A stretch of 64,000 nucleotides of DNA from a virus: positions 1 to 64,000 of IMG/VR virus record IMGVR_UViG_3300035169_000077, one strand, 5' to 3'. The notes beneath the pieces are model-generated. The model saw only the letters and a list, made by a program, of their open reading frames with translations, had not been told where the DNA came from and did no database searches. The translations under genes and the position numbers were made by a program. Below are positions 1,290 to 45,328 of the stretch, in pieces (within the stretch, counting starts at the first letter, position 1; each line of letters opens with the position of its first letter).

Positions 1290-3677
1290 GTGGCCGCCGA
1301 CACGGAGTGGGTTGAGTACGCGGCCCGCGAGTTCGAGGTTGTGCAGCCGCCGGAGTGGCGCGAGATCGCCCGGCCGGAGCAGCTGCCCCCGGATGGCAAG
1401 TGGCTGACGTGGGCGTTCATCGCCGGGCGCGGCGCGGGCAAGACGCGCTCCGCGGCCGAGTGGGCGCATGCACGGGCGATGGAAAACCCTGGCTGCCGGA
1501 TCGCCCTCGTTGGCCGTACCCCGGCCGACGTGCGCGATGTCATGATCGAGGGCGAGTCGGGGATCCTCGCGATCGCGGGCGGCGACAAGCCCGTCTACCA
1601 GTCGACCAAGCGGCGGCTGACGTGGCCGAACGGGTCGATGGCTTATGCCTATTCTGCCGAGGTCCCCCCGCAGCTGCGAGGCCCCCAGCACCACTACGCC
1701 TGGGCTGACGAGGCCGCCAGCTGGACGGACGCCCGCAAGGGCGACGTGCTGGACACGGCGTGGAACAACCTCATGCTCGGCCTGCGGCTCGGCGCTGACC
1801 CGCGGTGCGTGGTCACGACGACGCCGAAGCCGAACGCGCTCACCAAGACGATCCTCGGCCGGAAGTCGACCGTCGTCACCAAGGGCACGACGTACGACAA
1901 CCTGGCGAACCTGGCCCCGTCGTTCCGCGAGGAAGTCCTCGCCGCCTACGAGGGCACCCGCATCGGCCGGCAGGAACTGCTCGGCGAGATGCTCGAAGAC
2001 GTCGAGGGCGCGCTGTGGACGCTCGCGCTGATCGACCAGGCCAGGGTCAAGGGCCACCCGGACCTGGCCCGCGTCGTCGTCGCGGTCGACCCCTCCGGCG
2101 GCGAAGGCCCGGACTCTGACGAGCAGGGCATCATCGTGGCAGGCCTCGGGGTCGACGCCGAGGTGTACATCCTGGCGGACAGGTCATGCAAGCTGTCCCC
2201 GCACGGCTGGGCGTCGCGGGCCGTGGCCGCTTACCGGGAGTTCGCCGCTGACCGGATCGTCGCCGAGGTGAACTACGGCGGCGCGATGGTGGCGTCAACG
2301 ATCGGGATGGCCGACTCCGCAGTTCCGGTGAAGGTGATCACCGCCTCGCGGGGAAAGGTGCAGCGGGCCGAGCCGGTCTCCCTGGCATACGAGCAGGGCC
2401 GCGTGCACCATGTCGGGCCGCTGGCCAAGCTCGAAGACCAGATGACCACCTGGACCCCGCTGGACGGGACGAGTCCAGACCGGCTGGACGCCTGCATCGC
2501 AGCCGGGACGCCAGTGCTCACGGCGCGCGGCGAGGTGCCGATTGAGGATGTCGTAACCGGAGACCTGGCGTGGACGCGCCAGGGCTGGAAGCCGGTCACG
2601 GCGGCTAGGCGCACCCGCAGGGACGCTGAGGTACTGACGGCCGTGCTGTCGTCCGGCAGGACACTGACGGCCACCCCGGACCACCGGGTATGGGTTGAGG
2701 GCATCGGCTGGACCCGGATGGATGCCCTCGTGTGGGCTGATAGACTTTCAGGGTGGAAGAATCCCCGGTCGCAGTCACCTACAGAGGCGTCACGTACAAG
2801 CGCAACCCCAGCGCTAAGCAGCGTGCCCACCGGGTCTACTACAACGCACCGAGAGGCAGCGGGCGCAGTTCGCTGCACCGTGACACCTGGCGCGACAACC
2901 ACCCCGGCGAGGACATCCCCGCAGGCTGGCACGTCCACCACAAGGACCACGACCCGTTCAACAACGACCCCGGCAACCTCGTCCTCCGGTCACCCAAGGG
3001 CCATGCCGCCGAGCACCCCGAAGTCGCCGGGATGCCAGCCGATCACCTCGCCGCCATACGCCCCCTCGCCGCCGACTGGCACGCAAGCGCCGAGGGCCGC
3101 GAGTGGCACGCCGAGCACGGCAAGCGCACCTGGGAAGACCGCGAGCCCGTGGCCCGCAAGGCATGCGGCCAGTGCGGCGAGCAGTTCGACGCGTGGTTCG
3201 ACCGGGCCGAGTACTGCTCTCGCACCTGCATCAACCGCGCCACTGAGCACAGGCTCCGCCGCAGTGCCGTCTGCGTCATCTGCGGATCGGAGTACGAGCA
3301 GGACCGCAAGGCCCGAGGTCAGACCTGCTCCCGCAAGTGTGGCGCGGCTCTGCGCAAGCAGCGAGCGGCGTGACGTCTACGACCTGACGGTGGCCGATGC
3401 CCATGAGTTCGTCGCGGCCGGGGTCATCGTCCACAACTGCGTCTGGGCGATCACCGAATTGACCGGGAACTTCGGAGCGGACGCCTGGCTGGCATGGGGG
3501 CGACGCAAGGCGCAGGAAGCCGCTGCGGCGCGAGGTGAAGCCCCCGCCCCCGCTCCTCGCCCGCCAGTGGCCCAGCCCGAGGCACCCCCCGAGCCGGAGC
3601 ATGTCCCGTTGGACCCGGTGACGGCACGGAAGCTGGCAAGGGACGCGGCGTTCAGGTCATCAGGTAACGGACGGTAG
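1290..3677 (+). CDS. terL: terminase large subunit, intein-containing (about 480 aa after splicing)
   Basis: Walker A AGRGAGKT, LRGPQ, Walker B WADE, TTTP coupling motif; nuclease VAVDPS, AEVNYGG, DRLDA/CVWAITEL. Confidence 0.95.
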   Translation: MAADTEWVEYAAREFEVVQPPEWREIARPEQLPPDGKWLTWAFIAGRGAGKTRSAAEWAHARAMENPGCRIALVGRTPADVRDVMIEGESGILAIAGGDKPVYQSTKRRLTWPNGSMAYAYSAEVPPQLRGPQHHYAWADEAASWTDARKGDVLDTAWNNLMLGLRLGADPRCVVTTTPKPNALTKTILGRKSTVVTKGTTYDNLANLAPSFREEVLAAYEGTRIGRQELLGEMLEDVEGALWTLALIDQARVKGHPDLARVVVAVDPSGGEGPDSDEQGIIVAGLGVDAEVYILADRSCKLSPHGWASRAVAAYREFAADRIVAEVNYGGAMVASTIGMADSAVPVKVITASRGKVQRAEPVSLAYEQGRVHHVGPLAKLEDQMTTWTPLDGTSPDRLDACIAAGTPVLTARGEVPIEDVVTGDLAWTRQGWKPVTAARRTRRDAEVLTAVLSSGRTLTATPDHRVWVEGIGWTRMDALVWADRLSGWKNPRSQSPTEASRTSATPALSSVPTGSTTTHREAAGAVRCTVTPGATTTPARTSPQAGTSTTRTTTRSTTTPATSSSGHPRAMPPSTPKSPGCQPITSPPYAPSPPTGTQAPRAASGTPSTASAPGKTASPWPARHAASAASSSTRGSTGPSTALAPASTAPLSTGSAAVPSASSADRSTSRTARPEVRPAPASVARLCASSERRDVYDLTVADAHEFVAAGVIVHNCVWAITELTGNFGADAWLAWGRRKAQEAAAARGEAPAPAPRPPVAQPEAPPEPEHVPLDPVTARKLARDAAFRSSGNGR
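2738..2752 (+). promoter_or_regulatory. internal extended -10 promoter for a leaderless HNH mRNA
   Basis: TGA-TAGACT followed by 6 nt and then GTG 2753. Confidence 0.65.
2753..3373 (+). CDS. HNH homing endonuclease with C-terminal zinc fingers, nested out of frame inside the intein
   Basis: LHRDTW...IPAGWHVHHKDHDPFNNDPGNL...H...H; CGQCG...YCSRTC and CVICG...TCSRKC; own GTG start and TGA stop. Confidence 0.9.
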   Translation: MEESPVAVTYRGVTYKRNPSAKQRAHRVYYNAPRGSGRSSLHRDTWRDNHPGEDIPAGWHVHHKDHDPFNNDPGNLVLRSPKGHAAEHPEVAGMPADHLAAIRPLAADWHASAEGREWHAEHGKRTWEDREPVARKACGQCGEQFDAWFDRAEYCSRTCINRATEHRLRRSAVCVICGSEYEQDRKARGQTCSRKCGAALRKQRAA

Positions 3678-15554: not shown

Positions 15555-16183
15555 CCCTCCCGATCCGGCACTACTACCACGTTTACGCGGCCGGGGCGTG
15601 GATCAGGCCCGCGCAGGAGCACGTCACGGCGCTGGCCCTGTCCGGCCTGCGGGCGCCCATGGTCATCGGGCTGGTCGGCGTTCCCGGTGGCCGGCAGCAG
15701 GCCCGGGAGATGATCACGGCGATGCTCTCGGAGGCTGGCCTGCCCGCCCCGGAGCGGTGGGCGGAGGCCGATGAGGGCTGGGAGCAGGTAACCCTCGCCG
15801 AGATCCACGCCGACATTCACCGGATCCCGGCCGGGTTCGCGGTCATGTACGCCCACGCGAAGGGCTCGGCGAACCCGTCTCCGCTGAACGCGGCGTGGCG
15901 GCGGTCGATGACCCGGCACGTGGTGTGCGGCTGGGAGGAATGCGCTGGCCTGCTGGAGGACGGCTACGACACGGCGGGCTGCCACTGGGTGACGGCGCAC
16001 AAGAGCACCACCGCGTTCTACGCGGGGAACTTCTGGTGGGCGCGGGCCTCCTACCTGCGGGGGCTGCCGCCTCCGCCGTGCGATTCCCGGTGGCAGGCCG
16101 AGACGTGGGTGTCCTCCGTATCCGGCCCGAAGGCGGCCGACGTGCTGCCCGGATGGCCGCGCTACGCCCAGGCCGCCTCGTGA
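15551..16183 (+). CDS. putative glycosyltransferase-like protein
   Basis: E..TL, YAHAKG, FYAGNFWWARASYL, RW.AE.W motifs typical of viral GT-like proteins; operon context. Confidence 0.6.
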   Translation: MTLPIRHYYHVYAAGAWIRPAQEHVTALALSGLRAPMVIGLVGVPGGRQQAREMITAMLSEAGLPAPERWAEADEGWEQVTLAEIHADIHRIPAGFAVMYAHAKGSANPSPLNAAWRRSMTRHVVCGWEECAGLLEDGYDTAGCHWVTAHKSTTAFYAGNFWWARASYLRGLPPPPCDSRWQAETWVSSVSGPKAADVLPGWPRYAQAAS

Positions 16184-16677
16184 GGGTCTACTGCCCGTAC
16201 ACCGCGATCGCCGCGGCGACCCGCGCCGCCCTTGACGCCTCCGGGTACGAGTGGATAGAAGCCGAGGTGACCGGCGACGCCGGCTACTGGATGCTGCTCG
16301 CCTCGCTGTGGGAGCAAGGCGAGACGTTCGCCATCGTGGAGCATGACGTCATCCCGGCAGCCGGGGCGCTGGCCTCATTCGATGCCTGCGGCGGTGACTG
16401 GTGCTCATGCCCGTACCCGTACCTGGCCGGGACGTATGCCGGCCTCGGCTGCACGCGCTTCACCGCGGCGATTATGACTCGGTGCCCGGACCTGATGGAC
16501 GTCGTCGCCACCATGAGCAACGACAGCCACCCGCCGGGGCACTGGTGCACCCTTGACGCCTGGACGCGCGTCGTCCTCACCCAGCGGGGTGAGCGGCAGT
16601 GCACCGCCCACCCCGTGGCCGGCCACCCGTCCCGGTCGCCCGCCCACGGGTGCGTCCCCGGGTACGCGCCACGGTGA
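16180..16677 (+). CDS. minimal GT-A-like protein (paralog 1)
   Basis: IVEHDV (DxD-like), LGCTRF; GTGA coupling. Confidence 0.6.
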   Translation: MRVYCPYTAIAAATRAALDASGYEWIEAEVTGDAGYWMLLASLWEQGETFAIVEHDVIPAAGALASFDACGGDWCSCPYPYLAGTYAGLGCTRFTAAIMTRCPDLMDVVATMSNDSHPPGHWCTLDAWTRVVLTQRGERQCTAHPVAGHPSRSPAHGCVPGYAPR

Positions 16678-17153
16678 TCCTCCTGCCGTACACCCGCCTG
16701 CACCCCGCAACGGCGATGCTCGCCAGCCGTTACGCCCCGGGTCATGTCCGGGTGAAGCTGGACCCGGCCGACGATGCGGCCTACTGGCGGCTGCTGGCCA
16801 CCGCGTGGCGGGAGCCAGGCGACCTCACGGTGATCGAGCACGACATCGGCATCCGCGCCGGGGTCGCAGAGGGCTTCGCCTCATGCCGGGAGCCGTGGTG
16901 CGGCCACGAGTATCCCCTTGACCGCGGCGTCCTGCTGGCCTGCCTCGGCTGCACCAGGTTCACCAGCCAGCTGAAAGCGGCAGAGCCGGACCTCCTGGAC
17001 GTCGTCGGCGAGGTCGCCGGCGACGGGCTGCCCGCCAAGGACTGGCGCCGCCTGGACGTCCGGACTAGCGACGAGCTTAAGCGTCGCGGCTACGCCATGC
17101 ACGTCCACTCCCCGACCGTCCGGCATTACCACAAGTACGGAGGCACCCCATGA
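16674..17153 (+). CDS. minimal GT-A-like protein (paralog 2)
   Basis: VIEHDI, LGCTRF, PDLLDVV, W..LD shared with the preceding gene. Confidence 0.6.
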   Translation: MILLPYTRLHPATAMLASRYAPGHVRVKLDPADDAAYWRLLATAWREPGDLTVIEHDIGIRAGVAEGFASCREPWCGHEYPLDRGVLLACLGCTRFTSQLKAAEPDLLDVVGEVAGDGLPAKDWRRLDVRTSDELKRRGYAMHVHSPTVRHYHKYGGTP

Positions 17154-34214: not shown

Positions 34215-34444
34215 TCCGCGTCATTGCCGTTACCCGGAGGGCCATGAGCGCCTTGTTCCCGTGGCCTGCCCGGAGCGAGCGGAAGGCCGCCATAGCGAAG
34301 GCCCGCGACGGGCGGGAACAGGCCGAGGCCAGGGCCGCCGAAGCGGTCGGCGTAGAGGCGCAGATCAGGCAGATGGCGGCGCAGAACCACTTCGCCCAGG
34401 TGATCGCCGAGCAACTGACGCAGCATCACCGCCGGGAAGCGTAA
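34211..34444 (+). CDS. small lysis-cassette protein
   Basis: QNHFAQ.I motif common in actinophage lysis cassettes; start may be ATG 34244. Confidence 0.55.
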   Translation: MIRVIAVTRRAMSALFPWPARSERKAAIAKARDGREQAEARAAEAVGVEAQIRQMAAQNHFAQVIAEQLTQHHRREA

Positions 34445-34458
34445 GGCAACAGGGGGAA

Positions 34459-34896
34459 ATGAAATTGCTTCGTCGCGTCACATGGCGCAGCTGGGCCGGG
34501 CTTGCCCTGGTCCTCGCCGCCTATATCGGCATGGGCTTCTGGTGGGGATCCAACGGCAACGTAGAGGCTCTCATCTACAAGTGGGGCTTGCTGGCCGCGT
34601 CCGTGGCCCCGTTCGCCCTGATAGCCGTTTACACGGCGTCCCGGAACAAGTGGTGGTCGAACGACCTCGGAACGGCGCTGGTGCAGACGGCGCTGTGCAT
34701 GGTCCCGATCGCGGGCCCGCTGGCTTACGTCTTCTGGGTCGACAACGGGATGCTCACGTCGTCGCTGCTGGCCTGGGTTGAGGTGTCCGGCCCGGTGCTG
34801 TCCACGCTGGCGATGCTGCGGCTCTGCTGGGTGTTCGCGCGTATCCACCGGGACGGCAACGGGCACGGCGGGCCTCGGGGCAACGGTGACGGGTGA
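34459..34896 (+). CDS. putative holin
   Basis: Four hydrophobic segments, Y....KWW.N.LG.AL motif. Confidence 0.65.
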   Translation: MKLLRRVTWRSWAGLALVLAAYIGMGFWWGSNGNVEALIYKWGLLAASVAPFALIAVYTASRNKWWSNDLGTALVQTALCMVPIAGPLAYVFWVDNGMLTSSLLAWVEVSGPVLSTLAMLRLCWVFARIHRDGNGHGGPRGNGDG

Positions 34897-34999
34897 TGCC
34901 CGCCGGGCACTGTGGCCCTTGCTCATCGCCGCCATCACCGTGACAGCGGTAGGGGTGGCAGTCCTCATCGCACTCGTCAGCCACTAGCAAAGGGGCCTG

Positions 35000-35545
35000 A
35001 TGGCACTCGCGGACCTGTCCGTCCTCGCCGCGCGGAAGAACGGCGGCTCGTTCCCCACGGGCTACCCGTCGTCGCCGCTCACGTTCTACAGCCCGGTCGA
35101 CGATCTCCATGGCGCGCTCCTCGACGTGATGAACGCCGCGACGTCCAGCCTGGTCGTGGTGATGTACGGGCTGGATGATGACGAGCTGGTGAAGCTGCTC
35201 CACGAGAAGCTCGACGATGAGCACTGCTTCGTGCAGCTCACCCTCGACTCCTCCCAGGCTGCCGGGAAGCACGAGGCGGCGCTGCTCGCCAAGGACGTCT
35301 TCCCGTCGAACACGGTCGCCATAGGTCGCAGCGAACGGGGCGCGATCATCCACCTGAAAATGGTGGTCGCGGACGGAATCGACGTGATCACGGGGTCGAC
35401 GAACTGGTCAGAGTCCGGGGAGTCGCTACAAGATAATGCCCTGATCATCATCAGGGACGCCCATGTCGCGGCAGAGGCTCGCACTAGAGCGGACATCATT
35501 CACCAGACGATTCTCACGAGGGCCGCTGCCCTGCACGCCTCCTAG
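35000..35545 (+). CDS. phospholipase D-family single-HKD enzyme
   Basis: HLKMVVAD...TGSTNWS (HxKxxxxD...GSxN); SL.V.MY; LTLD. Confidence 0.9.
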
Positions 35546-36026
35546 CAACTGCCCGCCGCTCGTTCTCCCGCTTGGTCACCGGGTCAAGGTGCTCGGGATT
35601 CACGCATGCCCGGACGCAGCAGAGGTGATCTAGGTGCTTCCCGGTCGGGATCGGGCCGACGTGCTGTTCGTACATCCAGCGGTGCGCCCGGAGGGTCTTG
35701 CCGTCTCGCCGTAGGGCGCCGTAACCGGTTTTGAGCATCGCTCGCGCCCAGATCCAGCAGGGCGTTTCGTAGCCCATGTCTTCGACTCGGTACAGCGGCT
35801 TGGTGTGGATACGCAGGAGTCCTTCGGATATAGCCCGGCGCGCCTCAGGCGAAAAGACCCTGCCGGTACCGGCGTCAGCGATAGCTGCCCGGTGCTCCGG
35901 CGTCAGCGATCGCCCGCGCATCTTCGATGCGCGGAGTTCCCGGATCTCTGGATTGGTCCACTGATGTCCTCGCAGGTAACGACCGCGAGTCGGATGTCCG
36001 CCGCAACCGCAAAGGCAATCTGACAT
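35514..36026 (-). CDS. HNH homing endonuclease (CxCGCG, NUMOD3-like repeats, HNH)
   Basis: CLCGCG; [10 protein letters not shown] and [10 protein letters not shown]; CWIW...GYG...[34 protein letters not shown]. Confidence 0.92.
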
Positions 36027-36041
36027 GTCAAAAGCATACCA
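36027..36041 (-). promoter_or_regulatory. extended -10 leaderless promoter of the HNH gene
   Basis: TGG-TATGCT followed by 6 nt and then ATG 36026. Confidence 0.65.
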
Positions 36042-36042
36042 G

Positions 36043-37056
36043 CTAGCCGTCATTCGCAATGCCTTGGTGATCATCAGGGACCCGCACGTGGCCGCTGAGG
36101 CGCGGACGCGGGCGGACATGATCCACCAGCATGTCCTGACGGCCGCGCGCCGGTAACTCCGCCTTGGGCTGCCTGCCCGAAGCCATCAATGCCCGGTCAA
36201 GGCACTCCGCGTAGTCGGGGGCGATCAGGTCGAACGCGGACAGGCCATTGCCGAACCAGTAGTCGTCCCAGTTCGCCGGGTCCATGCGCAGGCCGCCTAG
36301 GCTGCCGCGAAGGCCGGCCATCCCCAGTTCCCACTGCACGGGGCGGGGAAGGCCCCAGAACAGGTCCCGCGCCTCCTGCTCGCGGTGCTCGTCGCGGGCT
36401 TCCTCGTCATGCTGCGCCCATTCTTCCGGGGCCTCCCGCGCCCATTTCGGCCTCAGGTCGGTGCCCTCGGGCGGCTGCCATGCGGCCGCCCTGGGGTTCG
36501 GGAACTGATCGGCCGCCGAGTAGGACAGGACAACCGGCTCGTCATCGCGGGACCGGAGGAACGCGGTCACGTCCTCCCATGACTCATGGCTTGGCCGGCC
36601 GCACCGCTCGCGGTAGCCGGTGTTGCGGCGGAACGTCCCCGCGTCCAGGCCCTCGTCGATCATCTCGGCGAGCCATGCCCGGTCGGCCCCCTCGCACCAG
36701 CAGTGGATCTCAGCCTGCCCGGCGATGCGGGCAGCGAGCCTCAGTGGGTTGTTACTGCCGGCGGCTGCCATCGCGGTGTTCAGCAGCAGCGTGAGCGAGT
36801 CGATCTCGCAGCCCTTCCACCACAGGACAGGCTCCGAGATGCGCAGCAGCGTCTCTACCGACTTCAGCCACGCGTCATCGTCACGGAACCGCAGCCCCGG
36901 GTAGGGGTCGGGGGCGAGTTCGCGGCACAACGCGATGTGGCTCGGCATGTCGAGCACCGCAAGGGCGGCGTCCTTCACCAGGTTGTGCAGGTGATGGTGC
37001 TCGCCGCCCCAAAGCTCCGCGTCGCCCGACGGCGAGTGAAAGTAGACCCTGCTCAT
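36043..37056 (-). CDS. hypothetical protein
   Basis: ATG 37056 lies 7 nt after TAGGCT; globular sequence. Confidence 0.7.
36058..36156 (+). pseudogene. orphaned second copy of the PLD 3' end
   Basis: [32 protein letters not shown] versus [31 protein letters not shown]; no start codon. Confidence 0.85.
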
Positions 37057-37212
37057 GCCGGCAAGCCTAGGCGTTGAGAAGCGCGTTCGGACGGCTGCGA
37101 CTGCGGGAAGAAGGCGGCACCGGGTGAGCCTCGCTGACGTCCTGTGGGCCGGTGCCGCTCTCCTGGCCCTCGCGGTCCTGACGGCGGTAGCCGACTGGCT
37201 CCGGGGTGGCCT

Positions 37213-37353
37213 GTGACCGCGAACGGCCAGTGGTGGCTCTGCCCCAACGAGCCGCGATGCCCTCACGCCGCCGTGGTGCACGACATCGAGGACTTCGACG
37301 ACGAAACCCCGCGCTGCTGCGCCGAGGGCTGCGACTGCGGAAAGCGGGCCTAG
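37213..37353 (+). CDS. small Cys/His protein
   Basis: C....CPH...HD...CC.EGCDC; coupled starts and stops. Confidence 0.5.
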   Translation: MTANGQWWLCPNEPRCPHAAVVHDIEDFDDETPRCCAEGCDCGKRA

Positions 37354-37583
37354 TGTCGATCCTCCGGGACCTGTTCGGCCCGGGGACGTGGGGTGCGGGT
37401 GGCAATCTCGCCGCCGCGCCGATCCTCGCGGTGATCAGCGGCGGCGTGGCGTGGCTGCTGCGGCACAAGATCGGCCGGGGACTCGCCGCCTGGTGGGCAA
37501 AGCACCACGGGCCGCACGCCATAGCCCAGCACCGTGAGGCGCTGCGGCAGCACGAGGAAGCCAAGCGGAGGGACGCGCAGTGA
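37353..37583 (+). CDS. small membrane protein
   Basis: One TM; coupled to the endolysin. Confidence 0.55.
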   Translation: MSILRDLFGPGTWGAGGNLAAAPILAVISGGVAWLLRHKIGRGLAAWWAKHHGPHAIAQHREALRQHEEAKRRDAQ

Positions 37584-38338
37584 GCATCACGATGTTCGAC
37601 ACGATCACCGAGTCCGCGTGGCCATCTGACCCGCAGGCGGTCCTCGGCTACGTGGACGGCCACGTAGGGGACCAGCCGGACTGGGCTTATGTTCAGCACC
37701 GGTTCCCGAACGCCTTCCACCTGTCGATCGCCCTGGACCCCGCGCACGACGCGATGGCCCTGGACATCGAGACGGGGGCGGCTTCCCCGTCGTCGGCGGT
37801 CGCCTGGTACGAGCGGCAGAAGGCCAGGGGTGTCGCCCGCCCTTGCCTGTACGCCTCCGCCTCCCTGATGGAGGCCACCATCATCCCGGTAGTCCGCGCG
37901 GCCAGGTTCCCCCGTGACCAGGTGCGGCTGTGGTCGGCGCACTACACGCACTCGGCTCACATTTGCGGGCCGTCATCCTGCGGGCTGACGTCGGTCGCCG
38001 TGGACGGCACCCAGTGGACTGACCGGGCGTACGGCCGGAACCTCGATCAGTCGCTCCTGCTCGGCGACTTCTTCGGCGCGGCACCCAAGCCCCCGCCCGG
38101 GCATCCGTCGCCGTGGCCCGCTGGCACGGTACTCCGTGAGGGGGACTCCGGCGCTGCCGTCCGCGCCTTGCAGACGGCACTGAGCGACTCCGGCATCAGG
38201 GGAGTACGGGGCATCACCGTTGACTCGGTGTTCGGGCAGCAGACCCTGACCGCTGTCCGGAACTTCCAGGCGGATAAGGGGCTGGCGGTAGACGGCATCG
38301 CCGGGCCTCAGGTTCGCGCAGCTCTCGGCATCCGGTGA
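37580..38338 (+). CDS. endolysin: GH25-like muramidase plus PG_binding_1 domain
   Basis: LDIETG, PCLYAS, LWSAHYT, TQWTD...NLD.S; LREGDSGAAVRALQ, VDSVFG..T..AVRNFQ..GLAVDGIAGP. Confidence 0.88.
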   Translation: MSITMFDTITESAWPSDPQAVLGYVDGHVGDQPDWAYVQHRFPNAFHLSIALDPAHDAMALDIETGAASPSSAVAWYERQKARGVARPCLYASASLMEATIIPVVRAARFPRDQVRLWSAHYTHSAHICGPSSCGLTSVAVDGTQWTDRAYGRNLDQSLLLGDFFGAAPKPPPGHPSPWPAGTVLREGDSGAAVRALQTALSDSGIRGVRGITVDSVFGQQTLTAVRNFQADKGLAVDGIAGPQVRAALGIR

Positions 38339-40679: not shown

Positions 40680-40710
40680 CCGCCCAACGTACCCCGGGAG
40701 GTGACGGCGC

Positions 40711-42093
40711 TTGACCTCACTCGTTTACGTCACCATCACGGGCCAGTTCCTCGGCGGCGATGAGACGCCCCTCTCCGGAACGGTGACCTTCACCGCAAGC
40801 CAGGCTGTCTACTCGGCAGGCCAGGAGATCGTCACCCCTGATGTCCCGGTCGCCGCGCAGATCACGGACGGCGTCCTCCTGGCCGAGTCGGGCGGCGCGC
40901 TGCAGCTGCTCGCGACGGACCAGAGCGGCCTGACGTTCCTGACCTTGAGCGGGTTCTTCTACTGGACCGTGCGGGTAGTGGCCGGCGGAGTCACTGAGCC
41001 GTCATGGTCGTTCGGCCTGCCGTCGTCGCCATCGAGCGTCGACTTGTTCGCCCTCGCGAACAGGCCCTTCACCGCAGGCGGCGTCACCTCGGTCACGGCA
41101 GCGGACACCTCGGTTGTCATCGGGGGAACGGGCACGGCCCCGACGGTGCGGACGGGCACGCTGGACGTGATCGCCACCCAGCATGCGCCGGCGGGTAACT
41201 GGTCGAACAACAGCCACAAGATCACGTCGCTGGCAAACGGGGCCTCCGCGCAGGACGCGGCGGCGTTCGGGCAGGTCCCCACCTCAGCGGGGAGCATCGG
41301 CGGCCTCCTCGCCGCAAGCAACCTCTCCGACGTCGCCAATGCCGGCACGGCCCGGACCAACCTGGGCCTGGGCAGCGCGGCGACTCAGGCTAGCAGCGCG
41401 TTCGACGCGGCCGGGGCGGCCTCCGCAGTGCTGGCGCTTGCCGCGCTGCGCGCCAATAACCTGTCGGACCTGGCCAGCGCGCCGACGGCCCGGACCAACC
41501 TGGGCCTCGGCGGGGCGGCCGTGATCGGCGTCCCGGTCTCCATCGCCAACGGCGGCACCGGGCAGACTGCCCAGCAGGCGGCACTCGACGCGCTCGCGGG
41601 AGCGGTCACCACGGCCCAGTTCCTGCGGGGCAACGGCACGCACGTCGTACTGGGCGCGATCCAGGCCACCGACGTCCCCACCCTCAACCAGAGCACCACG
41701 GGGACGGCCGCCAACTTCACCGGCGGGGCGACCGTGCCCGCCTATGTGGCCCCGCACGTGGCGACGCTCACCGACGCGGCGACGGTCGCGGTCAACGCGG
41801 CCCTCGGCAACGACTACCGGCTCCTCACCACGAGCGGGGTAGGCGCATCGCGGACAATCGGCGCACCCTCTAGCCCGGTCGACGGGCAGGCCATCACGAT
41901 CGACGTCCAGCAGGCATCCAGCGGGGGCCCGTACACGGTCACCTGGGCATCAGGGGCGGGCGGCTACTCGTTCGGCACCGACGGCGCGCCGACGCTGAGC
42001 ACCGGTGCTAACGCGGTCGACACGATCGGCTTCCGCTACCACGCCGGCCTCGGCAAGTGGATATGCCTCGGGTGGAAATTGGGATTCGCGTGA
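40711..42093 (+). CDS. fibre-like virion protein
   Basis: GGGAGG RBS; NLSD...ARTNLGLG twice, KITSLANG...QDAA, SIANGGTG; TLTDAATV..NA C-terminal module. Confidence 0.75.
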   Translation: MTSLVYVTITGQFLGGDETPLSGTVTFTASQAVYSAGQEIVTPDVPVAAQITDGVLLAESGGALQLLATDQSGLTFLTLSGFFYWTVRVVAGGVTEPSWSFGLPSSPSSVDLFALANRPFTAGGVTSVTAADTSVVIGGTGTAPTVRTGTLDVIATQHAPAGNWSNNSHKITSLANGASAQDAAAFGQVPTSAGSIGGLLAASNLSDVANAGTARTNLGLGSAATQASSAFDAAGAASAVLALAALRANNLSDLASAPTARTNLGLGGAAVIGVPVSIANGGTGQTAQQAALDALAGAVTTAQFLRGNGTHVVLGAIQATDVPTLNQSTTGTAANFTGGATVPAYVAPHVATLTDAATVAVNAALGNDYRLLTTSGVGASRTIGAPSSPVDGQAITIDVQQASSGGPYTVTWASGAGGYSFGTDGAPTLSTGANAVDTIGFRYHAGLGKWICLGWKLGFA

Positions 42094-42791
42094 CGATCAG
42101 CTTCCCCGCGACCAGCGGCGACCACAGCGTCACGGCGGAGGCGAATCCGCTGGTGATCGCGCCGCCGGCGAATGTCGCCAACGGCGACTTGCTCGTCGCA
42201 TGGGTCATCGCCAGGACCGGGATCAGCAGCGCGCCGGGCAGCTGGACGGCGCTGCAGTCGTTCACCACCAACGGGACGTTCGCGGCGTACTCGCTGAAGG
42301 TCCCGACCGCGTCGGCGCTGCCCGCTAACTGGACGTGGACCCCGGCGTCGGCGCGGGCGAGCGTGATCATCCAGCGGGTGACCGGCACCGACCTCACCGC
42401 CTCCGTCACCGTCGGCGGGACCTGCGGGGCGGGCACTGACGCCGGGTTCGGGACGACGTACTCGTCATTCCTGCCGATGCAGCTGCCCGGCATCACGCCA
42501 CCGGACGCGTGGGCCGCCTGCGTCGGGACGTTCTTCACCGGGGACGCCAACACTCCCTCGGCGGACCTCGTGCCGGGCGGGACGCTGCTGGCGACGGCGA
42601 CGACCACGAGCGCCGGGGCTGGCCGGTCGTCGTCGGGGATCTACGGCGCTGTCGCGGCCGGGCCGACCGGCACGATCGTGTGCGCGAACGACTGGCCGGG
42701 CGCGCCCGGCGGCCAGGACGGCATCCTGCTCGGCTTCACCGCCGTGCGCGCCCCCGTGAAGAGCGGGCTGCTGATGGCGGGGGTCATATGA
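42090..42791 (+). CDS. fibre-associated beta-sandwich protein
   Basis: P.NV.NGDLLVA, P..WT pattern; coupled. Confidence 0.6.
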   Translation: MTISFPATSGDHSVTAEANPLVIAPPANVANGDLLVAWVIARTGISSAPGSWTALQSFTTNGTFAAYSLKVPTASALPANWTWTPASARASVIIQRVTGTDLTASVTVGGTCGAGTDAGFGTTYSSFLPMQLPGITPPDAWAACVGTFFTGDANTPSADLVPGGTLLATATTTSAGAGRSSSGIYGAVAAGPTGTIVCANDWPGAPGGQDGILLGFTAVRAPVKSGLLMAGVI

Positions 42792-45328
42792 CGAGCCTGT
42801 CGTACGTCACGATCACTGGCCAGTTCACCGGGGGCGGCAACACGCCCCTGTCGGGCAGCGTGACCTTCACGCCGAGTCAGGCTGTCTACGCCGGGGGCGT
42901 CCCCGTCGTCACTCCCGGGGTGCCGATTACCGCCCAGGTGATCGCCGGGCAGCTGTTGTCCGAGCACGGGGGGCCGCTCCGGCTCCTGGCGACCGACAAC
43001 GACGGCCTGACCTTCCTGACCCTGACGGGCTTTTTCTGGTGGTCGGTTGAGGCGGTCATCGGCGGCGTCACTCAGCCGGCGTGGTCTTTCGGCTTGCCTT
43101 CCAGCCCGACAAGCGTCGACTTGTTCGCCCTCGCGAACACGCCCTTCGGTGGAGGCGGCGGCGGCAACCTCCCGCCCGCGATCATCACCTCCAGCGGCCC
43201 CCTTGGCCCTGAGTCAACGGCGATCCTCGCCGCCCCCGGCCTGACCGTCTCGCTGCCCGACGCGACCGCGGCACCGGGCAGGGCGATCACGGTCAAGCTC
43301 GACTCGCCGTTCACCACCGGGACGGTCGAGACGATCAACGGGCAGCTCATCGACGGCTACCCCTCGTACCAGATGGCCGCCCGGTACCAGTGGTGCACGC
43401 TCCAGTCGGACGGGACCAACTGGCAGGTCATCAGCGCCAAGCCCGGCGGCCTCCTGAGCATCCCCGTGCCAGTGCTGCCGGCCGGGACCGCCAACGCGCC
43501 GTACAGCGCCCAGCTCACGGCCAGCGGCGGGTGGCCCGGGTACACGTGGAGCGTCAAGTCAGGGAGCCTGCCCGACGGCGTGACCCTGTCCACCTCAGGC
43601 GCCCTCTCAGGCACCCCGACAGTGGCGACGACCAGCGGCTTTACCGTCCAGGTGACCGACTCGATCGGCTCCATCGCGACGATCGCCCTGACTATCACGG
43701 TCGGCGGGGGCATCGTCCTCGTCCAGCAGGGCGCCGTGATTAACGCCTCGAACGGGGCCTCGGCGGCTCCCGTCTTCCTCAACGCCACCGCGGCCGGGAA
43801 CCTGCTCATCGCCCATGTCGGCGGCAACGGCTCCGGGGCCATCACCACGACCGCTTCCGGCTGGGTTGTCGTCGGCGCCGGCGGCCATGCGATCGCCTAC
43901 AAGGAGAACTGCGGGGCCGGCGAGACGCCTCCCGTCTTCTCTCGCGGCAGCACCAGCGACATGTGGGCGTACCTGGAGGAGTGGACCGGGGCCGCCACCT
44001 CAGGCGCGGCAGACCAGTCCGTGTCATCCTCCGCCGGGTCGTCGGCATGGACAGCGGTATTCCCGGCGCTGAGCACCGTGCCGGGGGAACTGCTGGCCTG
44101 CGCGGGCTACTGGAACGGCAGCAACACGGGCGGCAGCGTCGCGCTGACCAGCTTCCTCGACAACACCGGCGACACGATCACCGGCACGTTCCTCCAGGGC
44201 GGGAATAGCTTCGGCCAGTACTTCGCCGGGGTCTCCGGGGTCGCCGGCCCGACCGGCAGCACGCATGACCAGGTCGGGATGACCCTCAGTGTCTTCGCGG
44301 GCGGCGACGGCACCCTGGTCTCGTTCCAGCCCGGCAACCAGGGGCCGCCCGGGAACCCCGTCGTCACCACCGCGTCCCCGCTGCCATCAGCGTCCACGCT
44401 GCAGCCGTACACGGTGATCCTCGCCGCAGAAGACGGGGTCCCGCCCTACACGTGGTCGATCGCGTCCGGCACGCTCCCGGCAGGCCTCGCGCTCTCCGCG
44501 GACGGCGTCATCTCCGGCTCCCCCGTGACCGCCGCCGTGTACTCGTTCACCGTCCGGGTCACCGACAGCATCAGCGACTCCGGCACCATGCCGCTGGGCC
44601 TCACGGTCGCGCAGACTCCCACCCCGACGTTCGTGACGTCGGCCTTCACGGAGGCCACCGGAAGCCGCAGCCAGCCGTATCCCGGCATAGCCGCCATCAC
44701 CGGGCCCACTCAGGACCCGACCGTCAACAACAACGTGTGGTCGCCGGTGACCGGGACGGCGTCCGAGCTATTCGTGGTCGATCCCACCCGCTTCTGGGTA
44801 GTCGCCAACATGCCACCCGGGAACACTCAGGTGCTGGCATTCCAGAGCAATGACCTGCGGTTCGGCGAGTTGCCGCTCAGCAGCTTCACTAAGGTCGTCA
44901 GCTCGTTCAGCGAGGAAATGAACCCGACTCCCGGCACGCAAGCCTGGGCGGCCTATGACATCTGGCTGAATAACTGGAACAACGAGATCATGATCCATCA
45001 TGATCTCGCCAGGTTCAATCCTTACGACTCCACGCCCCTGGCCAGGGGAATCTCGTTCGGCGGGAGCAACGGCGTGCCAGTCCTGGCCTGGGACCTGCAC
45101 CTTTACGGCACCAGTGAATATGTCTGGCAGCCAGCGAATAACGCGTTCAATATCCAGTCGGGCAGCGTTGACATTTTGCAAATGCTTCAGTGGATGATTG
45201 ACAATGCGTTCCTGCCGGCGGTTAACACCTTCACGGCAGTCGGCTACGGCTGGGAGATGTGCAGCACCGGCGGCCTTGATGAATTCTTCCAGGTGACCGC
45301 TTTCACCCTTGACGCCGAGTACGGCTAA
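42788..45328 (+). CDS. modular fibre protein: anchor domain, two He_PIG Ig domains and a C-terminal GH12-like glycoside hydrolase
   Basis: LP......Y...L.A.GG..PYTWS...G.LP.G..LS..G..SG.P twice; VNNNVW, AAYDIW, NEIMI, SGSVDI, GYGWEM. Confidence 0.8.
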   Translation: MTSLSYVTITGQFTGGGNTPLSGSVTFTPSQAVYAGGVPVVTPGVPITAQVIAGQLLSEHGGPLRLLATDNDGLTFLTLTGFFWWSVEAVIGGVTQPAWSFGLPSSPTSVDLFALANTPFGGGGGGNLPPAIITSSGPLGPESTAILAAPGLTVSLPDATAAPGRAITVKLDSPFTTGTVETINGQLIDGYPSYQMAARYQWCTLQSDGTNWQVISAKPGGLLSIPVPVLPAGTANAPYSAQLTASGGWPGYTWSVKSGSLPDGVTLSTSGALSGTPTVATTSGFTVQVTDSIGSIATIALTITVGGGIVLVQQGAVINASNGASAAPVFLNATAAGNLLIAHVGGNGSGAITTTASGWVVVGAGGHAIAYKENCGAGETPPVFSRGSTSDMWAYLEEWTGAATSGAADQSVSSSAGSSAWTAVFPALSTVPGELLACAGYWNGSNTGGSVALTSFLDNTGDTITGTFLQGGNSFGQYFAGVSGVAGPTGSTHDQVGMTLSVFAGGDGTLVSFQPGNQGPPGNPVVTTASPLPSASTLQPYTVILAAEDGVPPYTWSIASGTLPAGLALSADGVISGSPVTAAVYSFTVRVTDSISDSGTMPLGLTVAQTPTPTFVTSAFTEATGSRSQPYPGIAAITGPTQDPTVNNNVWSPVTGTASELFVVDPTRFWVVANMPPGNTQVLAFQSNDLRFGELPLSSFTKVVSSFSEEMNPTPGTQAWAAYDIWLNNWNNEIMIHHDLARFNPYDSTPLARGISFGGSNGVPVLAWDLHLYGTSEYVWQPANNAFNIQSGSVDILQMLQWMIDNAFLPAVNTFTAVGYGWEMCSTGGLDEFFQVTAFTLDAEYG

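Follow-up and report, generated by a model that had tools for sequence, protein, structure and literature searches.

The PLD locus

The window analyzed in this study comprises the first 64 kb of the 98.7-kb viral record IMGVR_UViG_3300035169_000077 from IMG/VR (G+C content 70%, completeness about 94% according to CheckV). It contains a PLD/Nuc-like gene whose C-terminal coding end occurs twice, on either side of an HNH endonuclease gene that is encoded on the opposite strand. For comparison, about 100 loci with related PLD genes were examined in viral contigs and in genomes of actinobacteria. Two viral contigs without HNH gene, L003 and L004, encode PLD proteins that are 88% and 86% identical to that of the window. 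The locus consists of the following features, where GC3 denotes the G+C content at third codon positions and dS the synonymous divergence:

35000-35545, plus strand: PLD/Nuc-like gene, complete and in use, 181 amino acids, single HKD motif; native 5' part joined to a foreign tail
35000-35320, plus strand: native 5' part of the PLD gene; GC3 0.93, dS 0.63 (to L003) and 0.61 (to L004)
35321-35425, plus strand: possible, uncertain donor co-conversion tract over the HKD motif, with A/T-ending codons and raised dS
35426-35545, plus strand: recoded junction CTA CAA GAT AAT and in-use replacement tail with its own stop
35514-36026, minus strand: HNH_3 gene, 170 amino acids, PF13392 match
35514-35545, convergent overlap of 32 nt: HNH 3' end with the last in-use PLD codons and stop
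36027-36039, minus strand: short spacer upstream of the HNH start, with the -10-like TATGCT at 36038-36033
36040-36057, plus strand: putative fossil of an NQLTVIRD-type PLD tail start, 18 nt, CAGCTAGCCGTCATTCGC, reading QLAVIR
36058-36156, plus strand: native PLD tail left as orphan, 32 codons and TAA

The PLD protein matches PF13091 above the curated level (49.3 bits, cut-off 27) and shows both motifs of the family, HLKMVVAD (HxK(x)4D) and GSTNWS (GSxN). Its family profile matches the single-HKD nucleases Nuc (1BYR, E = 2.6e-7) and NucT, and the nearest of its 1622 homologues are 176-183 amino acids long.

The duplicated tail and the nuclease between its copies

From residue N146 onward the PLD tail is present in frame and in use at 35435-35545, and again as a downstream orphan at 36058-36156. 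An earlier note on this DNA, made from the letters alone, had described the PLD C-terminus as duplicated around an antisense HNH gene, and a codon by codon comparison of 35435-35518 with 36058-36141 reproduced this exactly: 23 of the 28 residues are identical, while 11 of these are encoded by different codons. Both copies open with AATGCC and share 71% DNA identity. When every open frame of the 98.7-kb genome was compared with all others, the pair (E = 1.4e-11) was among very few local duplicates. The same note had called the orphan start-less, and this has to be corrected, as an in-frame ATG at 36025 gives a frame of 43 amino acids. That frame (36025-36156, plus strand) comprises fossil and orphan, and use of its ATG is unsupported by any sign. 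The ATG forms half of an ACATGT palindrome, which also contains the HNH start on the other strand. Another palindrome, near-perfect and 18 nt long, lies at the start of the in-use tail (35439-35456); it is partly due to a V-to-I change and was flagged by the scan as a terminator-like hairpin on the minus strand.

The HNH gene runs on the minus strand from a start codon at 36026-36024 to a stop codon at 35516-35514, and its homologues begin at the same methionine. Its product consists of an N-terminal cysteine cluster, two NUMOD3-like repeats and a C-terminal HNH_3 domain, the latter matching PF13392 over residues 113-157 (55.3 bits, cut-off 24.8). The whole protein matches phrog_826 (HNH endonuclease) with E = 4e-31, while its PF05551 and NUMOD3 matches stay below their cut-offs. 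Since the catalytic and zinc residues (D133, H134, C136, C141, H146, and N155) are invariant in seven homologues, the nuclease looks intact. Its nearest relatives are the proteins P0121, P0122, and P0124 with 70-78% identity, and a second scan of viral contigs with the HNH alignment yielded no further full-length relative. Another HNH_3 domain is encoded in the same genome at about 2897-3007 (plus strand, 36 bits), where a flanking protein-level duplicate was not found.

The HNH gene had also been credited with its own leaderless promoter. In favor of this, the TANNNT hexamer TATGCT lies 6 nt before the HNH ATG, and counterparts precede the HNH genes of two further loci described below, L175 (TAGACT at 10 nt) and L024 (TACCAT at 5 nt). 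However, a consensus scan of the locus detected neither a sigma-70 promoter nor a ribosome-binding site. The leaderless promoter is therefore putative.

The downstream copy as original gene end

The tail type of the orphan is found in all of the 25 nearest PLD proteins and in both HNH-free loci. P0002, the nearest PLD protein, shares 91% identity overall and is identical to the orphan over 29 of 29 residues. It had been set beforehand as a test that the 3' ends of HNH-free relatives should be nearer to 36058-36156 than to the translated copy, and this is what the comparison returned: at the DNA level, the tails of L003 and L004 are 86% identical to the orphan and 69-71% identical to the in-use tail. 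Furthermore, the dS of the orphan to L003 and L004 (0.75 and 0.60) matches that of the 5' part (0.63 and 0.61), at a nonsynonymous divergence (dN) of 0.03-0.08. Because relatives carry its tail type and its dS equals that of the 5' part, the downstream copy is the original end of the PLD gene. In contrast, the in-use tail is saturated at synonymous sites (dS 2.3 to the orphan and 2.2 to L003), while its dN is only 0.12 and every family-invariant tail residue is retained. The translated tail is thus of foreign origin, yet constrained at the protein level.

Composition points in the same direction as the earlier note had claimed, with atypical codons in the in-use tail (GC3 0.75) and phage-typical ones in the orphan (0.91). 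For comparison, GC3 is 0.87 +/- 0.04 in the phage genes, 0.93 in the first 107 PLD codons and 0.725 in the HNH gene. Codons ending in A or T make up 7/107 before 35321, 9/38 in 35321-35434 and 9/36 in the in-use tail (Fisher test against the 5' part, p = 0.007 and p = 0.005 for the latter two). The sharpest switch in composition falls on CTA CAA GAT AAT at 35426-35437. A further claim, that the atypical codons extend upstream to about 35320, could be sustained in part. The enrichment itself stands, and the dS of 35321-35434 to L003 and L004 (1.29 and 1.31) is twice that of the 5' part. However, DNA identity to L003 stays unchanged at 0.82, and the likelihood profile of the left limit is two-peaked, with maxima at 35321 (log-likelihood ratio 5.8, permutation p = 0.014) and at 35426 (log-likelihood ratio 5.1). 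It is possible that 35321-35425 represents a co-conversion tract, while the signal for foreign DNA extending to 35320 is suggestive only.

The same build in other lineages

Among the loci compared, 62 empty alleles stand against three occupied lineages, and all insertions lie in or next to codon N146. One of them is L175, a 47-kb contig of an actinomycete metagenome-assembled genome, whose PLD and HNH are 63% and 57% identical to those of the window. There, GC3 of the PLD gene changes from 0.94 to 0.63 exactly at Q144, and the HNH gene (GC3 0.68) is again antisense and overlaps the PLD stop by 25 nt. L175 possesses a full orphan, which lacks a start and has an in-frame stop three codons upstream; its TGA and the start codon ATG of the following gene overlap, which is the native context of an operon left undisturbed. 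Compared to L172, the nearest empty allele, dS is 0.75 for this orphan and 0.80 for the 5' part, and saturation is reached in the in-use tail. The third lineage was found among the matches listed and is represented by L024, L005, and L025 from three samples. Its HNH is 60% identical to that of the window, its recoded tail has a GC3 of 0.66 versus 0.86, its convergent overlap of PLD stop and HNH 3' end measures 62 nt, and its orphan is reduced to an 18-nt remnant. In the 150 nt between the HNH remnant and an epimerase-like gene (L024:1527-1682), several GCCGTGAC/GCCGTCAC-like repeats are present.

The PLD genes of L175 and L024 are about 63-65% identical to that of the window. The PLD stop lies within the HNH 3' end in all three elements (window 32 nt, L175 25 nt, L024 62 nt), and the Q144 codon is CAA in all three occupied alleles, while the empty alleles use CAG in 59 and CAA in 3 of 62 cases. 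As judged from the comparison of empty alleles, the QDN codons are the most conserved DNA near the junction. Since the occupied alleles L175 and L024 share the build of the window at the same codon, the recurrence indicates a site-specific element family.

The right end of the element lies at the same nucleotide inside N146 in the window and in L175, with nucleases that are 57% identical. In PLD orientation, the L175 orphan starts ...AC/CAG CTG ACC, at a distance of 23 nt beyond the HNH start. The fossil CAGCTAGCCGTCATTCGC of the window lies 13 nt beyond its HNH start; it likewise has AC in front of it, is in frame and is located exactly where the L175 orphan begins, so that both have ...AC/CAG CT... 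as common start. At 15 of its 18 positions, the fossil agrees with columns 1-6 of the NQLTVIRD tail type, which is found in empty alleles including L172 and L098; this score is reached by only 0.02% of random 18-mers from the window. Right after it, at AAT, begins the NALVIIRD-type orphan of the window. A local tandem duplication of the orphan start was considered as source of the fossil and rejected, since it gives 7/18 matches in register (hand count) versus 15/18 for the NQLTV-type consensus. The fossil is probably the remnant of an earlier host's orphan and points to such an earlier host as well as to a non-homologous right joint.

Surroundings of the locus

The neighborhood of the PLD gene is of the lysis type, with a weak holin-like match below threshold at 34261-34896 in front of it and an endolysin at 37580-38338 behind it. 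Between the orphan and the endolysin, a gene of about 298 amino acids is encoded on the minus strand (36160-37053), whose open frame runs on to 36046. It has phage-typical codons (GC3 0.84-0.90) and no match in Pfam, PHROG or the protein atlas. Its reading frame crosses the orphan antisense and meets a stop only within the cassette spacer. It is absent from the HNH-free L003, where the PLD stop directly precedes the next conserved gene. A search of the phage GenBank collection gave no relative of the locus, as the DNA search returned weak HNH matches and the PLD protein search none.

Two further local protein-level duplications emerged from the all-versus-all comparison. At 15775-17150, adjacent frames share 36% identity across 129 amino acids, and at 40705-45325, two neighboring genes have a common N-terminal module of 121 amino acids with 70% identity. 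In L125 (2501-4043), an intact PLD gene with native-type tail and without duplication is followed after 4 nt by a convergent gene for a different HNH protein of 334 amino acids. Possibly, endonucleases of several types insert preferentially at the PLD 3' end.

A probable homing cassette with its own gene end

Taken together, we consider it likely that a site-specific HNH_3 homing cassette carrying a replacement 3' end has inserted into the PLD/Nuc-like gene of this phage, and the best reading of it by analogy is a phage counterpart of the mobile open reading frame (mORF) gene hybrids of fungal mitochondria. The insertion lies just downstream of the catalytic motif, as previously proposed, namely inside N146 and nine codons after GSTNWS, the end of the HKD motif block. 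The cassette would span about 630 bp (roughly 35426-36057) inside this codon and would consist of a replacement for the last 36 codons with its own stop, the antisense HNH gene overlapping that stop, and the short spacer, while the native tail would be left just downstream as untranslated orphan.

From this anatomy we infer how cleavage, homing, expression and immunity of the cassette might work. During mixed infection, the HNH protein would cut or nick the empty allele near ...CAG GAC A/AC..., at the QDN codons, and repair would copy the cassette out of the occupied genome. In the transfer that gave rise to the window allele, copying would have run 18 nt beyond the element into the donor's own orphan, which was of a different tail type. 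The recipient DNA would have been broken within 1-2 nt of the canonical site, and its end, starting at AAT, would then have been linked to the copied sequence by a joint that needs no homology. This history of the right joint, fossil then AAT, would place the break at GAC/AAC.

The PLD protein would stay functional, as the cassette supplies the lost beta-strand and C-terminal helix, and splicing would be unneeded. A PLD gene cut at codon 145 is probably dead and rescued by the carried tail, because the Nuc alignment and a structural model place a strand and the C-terminal helix in the tail. In the alignment with Nuc (1BYR), the profile match extends only into the first part of the tail, and the model, which is of low confidence (mean predicted local distance difference test score 59), was used solely for the secondary structure of the tail, strand plus C-terminal helix. 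The occupied allele would escape cutting since its site is split by the insertion, and the rebuilt left junction would differ from the target through CAA instead of CAG at Q144 and through the diverged tail. In addition, recombination between the two tails, which could delete the cassette, would be impeded by their high synonymous divergence (71% DNA identity). Immunity through synonymous divergence is logically required and predicted on these grounds; much of the tail divergence would be more simply due to foreign origin and to the element's own lower-GC composition, which is seen in all three lineages.

Several observations weigh against this interpretation. No other confirmed viral contig contained the peptide pattern ADIIHQTI of the in-use tail, and a donor of the exact tail was not found. 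The window allele is known from one metagenomic contig. A recognition site located entirely within the tail would leave the orphan open to cutting. Even the nearest empty relatives are separated by a dS of about 0.6, which is too distant for the insertion to be dated. Finally, the three in-use tails are only about 70% identical in DNA to one another, and the protein of each resembles the local PLD lineage. One travelling sequence as source of all three was consequently rejected, since they are equally distant (about 70%) from all other sequences as well. The tails would look local if the cassette had long co-diverged with its target gene, or if the tail had been captured repeatedly or renewed occasionally.

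Other explanations of the duplicated tail

The duplication might also be a one-off mosaic joint from illegitimate recombination of two divergent phages, with the HNH gene as a mere passenger. Phage genomes are mosaic, the right joint of the window is non-homologous with its 18-nt fossil followed by the native tail, and the larger HNH of L125 behind an intact PLD gene shows that a nuclease can occur there without any duplication. However, a single accident hardly accounts for the recurrence of this build in L175, where even the nucleotide of insertion agrees, and in L024, where a remnant is left, with HNHs that are only 57-60% identical to that of the window. Nor does it explain CAA at Q144 and the interlocked PLD stop and HNH 3' end in all three elements, and we regard such a joint as unlikely. 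Less likely again is a downstream copy that is functional in itself rather than a leftover, either as the 43-amino-acid frame from the ATG at 36025 or as promoter region of the HNH gene. The in-frame ATG would fit this idea, as would the roughly 18 nt of tail-derived sequence that lie beside the HNH start in all three elements and could serve HNH expression. Yet the orphan of L175 has no start and an in-frame stop three codons upstream, L024 retains only 18 nt, and neither ribosome-binding site nor promoter was detected.

Two further possibilities concern the assembly and the transcript. As only one IMG/VR contig underlies the window, the assembly could in principle have stitched together PLD tail variants of two strains, but copies with 71% identity are too divergent to confuse an assembler, a complete conserved gene lies between them, and the layout recurs in independent assemblies, namely L175 and L024/L005/L025 (three samples). 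An assembly artifact is thus very improbable. Even harder to credit is an intron or other spliced element, in which 35435-36057 would be removed from the RNA and the downstream copy would be the real 3' exon. The orphan is indeed intact, in frame and free of an excess of amino acid changes (dN 0.03-0.08 to L003 and L004). However, a search of 34800-37400 on both strands matched no Rfam family at E <= 1, group I and II introns included, so that no ribozyme core of either group was seen around the HNH frame. Moreover, the in-use tail is in frame and complete, has its own stop, retains the invariant residues and shows a dN far below its dS, and 18 extra nucleotides of another tail type precede the orphan. 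An intein was rejected because the HNH gene is antisense, which makes it impossible. The view of the earlier note that the gene is restored at the DNA level, by neither intron nor intein, agrees with these results.

Relation to known systems

Hybrids between host genes and mORFs have been described for atp6, atp9, cox2, and nad3 of Glomus mitochondria (PMC3630166) and, according to the account given there, for atp6 of Allomyces macrogynus (Paquin et al. 1994, as cited in PMC3630166). In Endoconidiophora, partial C-terminal duplications of atp6 and cob lie next to endonuclease ORFs (PMC6279837). These cases supply the precedent of 3' replacement in fungal mitochondria to which the cassette had been likened before. 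As in the fungal hybrids, an endonuclease ORF lies in the 3' part of the gene, the native 5' part continues in frame into a foreign C-terminus, and the native C-terminus follows downstream and is nearer to relatives (here 86% versus 69-71%; in Glomus atp6, 91% DNA identity to relatives for the native and 63.5% for the inserted C-terminus, PMC3630166). In contrast to the fungal mORFs, the host here is a phage and not a mitochondrion, and the enzyme is of the HNH_3 type instead of LAGLIDADG or GIY-YIG. Furthermore, the Glomus mORFs are part of the host-gene transcript and some are in phase, whereas the phage HNH gene is antisense, convergent and overlaps the stop of the replacement tail.

Phage HNH homing endonucleases of the I-HmuI/I-BasI class also carry NUMOD-type repeats; they are products of group I intron ORFs, with an N-terminal HNH domain. 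The enzyme of the window shares with them the phage setting and the repeats (here below threshold), but its HNH_3 domain is C-terminal and it is associated with no intron. The free-standing endonucleases SegF, SegG, MobE, and MobA of T4 spread by intronless homing (PMC2988022). The likeness includes the absence of intron and intein, break repair with flanking co-conversion, phage HNH enzymes (Mob) and an occupied genome that is protected by differences in the target sequence. However, the T4 endonuclease genes are intergenic or divide their host gene into parts for two polypeptides, with cleavage sites hundreds of bp away (PMC2988022), while the cassette lies within PLD coding sequence, at a fixed nucleotide, and a replacement end keeps that gene whole. 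Where mobA interrupts a topoisomerase gene of T4 and mobE the nrdA gene of phage Aeh1, the genes are in pieces; function is maintained by assembly of the split polypeptides, besides translational bypassing in gene 60, and not by a duplicated, diverged end (PMC2988022). A carried replacement end is not described in this review of T4 endonucleases (PMC2988022). Our literature searches likewise found no published phage case of a carried replacement gene end.

Synthetic cleave-and-rescue and home-and-rescue drives link a nuclease, at one locus, to a recoded, cleavage-resistant rescue of the 3' part of its target gene, and the PLD cassette follows this design logic as a natural parallel to such engineered rescue-type gene drives. 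While those are engineered, RNA-guided and made for diploid animals, the PLD cassette is natural, protein-guided and found in a phage.

A similar arrangement might exist beyond PLD genes. Among about 120 HNH_3 loci, three more show the end of a neighboring gene copied and fused to or flanking the HNH. In L254 (1168-2396) and L020 (2863-4346), the HNH frame starts with a diverged copy of the first 20-25 residues of the downstream gene, and in L072 (321-1458), it ends with a copy of the last ~35 residues of the upstream gene. In view of these three loci, we lean slightly toward the idea that a diverged replacement end is a general, hitherto undescribed route of phage HNH genes into coding sequences, in effect a natural home-and-rescue drive, with the PLD family as an old lineage. 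Under such a reading, the PLD-specific lineage may insert at one nucleotide, co-diverge with its target and drag along fossils of former hosts.

The cassette would then illustrate how a selfish nuclease can live inside a viral protein-coding gene at little cost, by supplying a substitute end for the gene that it interrupts. For annotation, such cassettes yield hybrid genes and small orphan fragments, which distort gene calls, pangenomes and single-gene phylogenies. For phage evolution, the recipient would be recognizable by the orphan, the donor lineage by the in-use tail and a series of transfers by nested fossils. If the HNH protein cuts empty alleles in mixed infection, inheritance of the neighboring lysis genes would be skewed as well.

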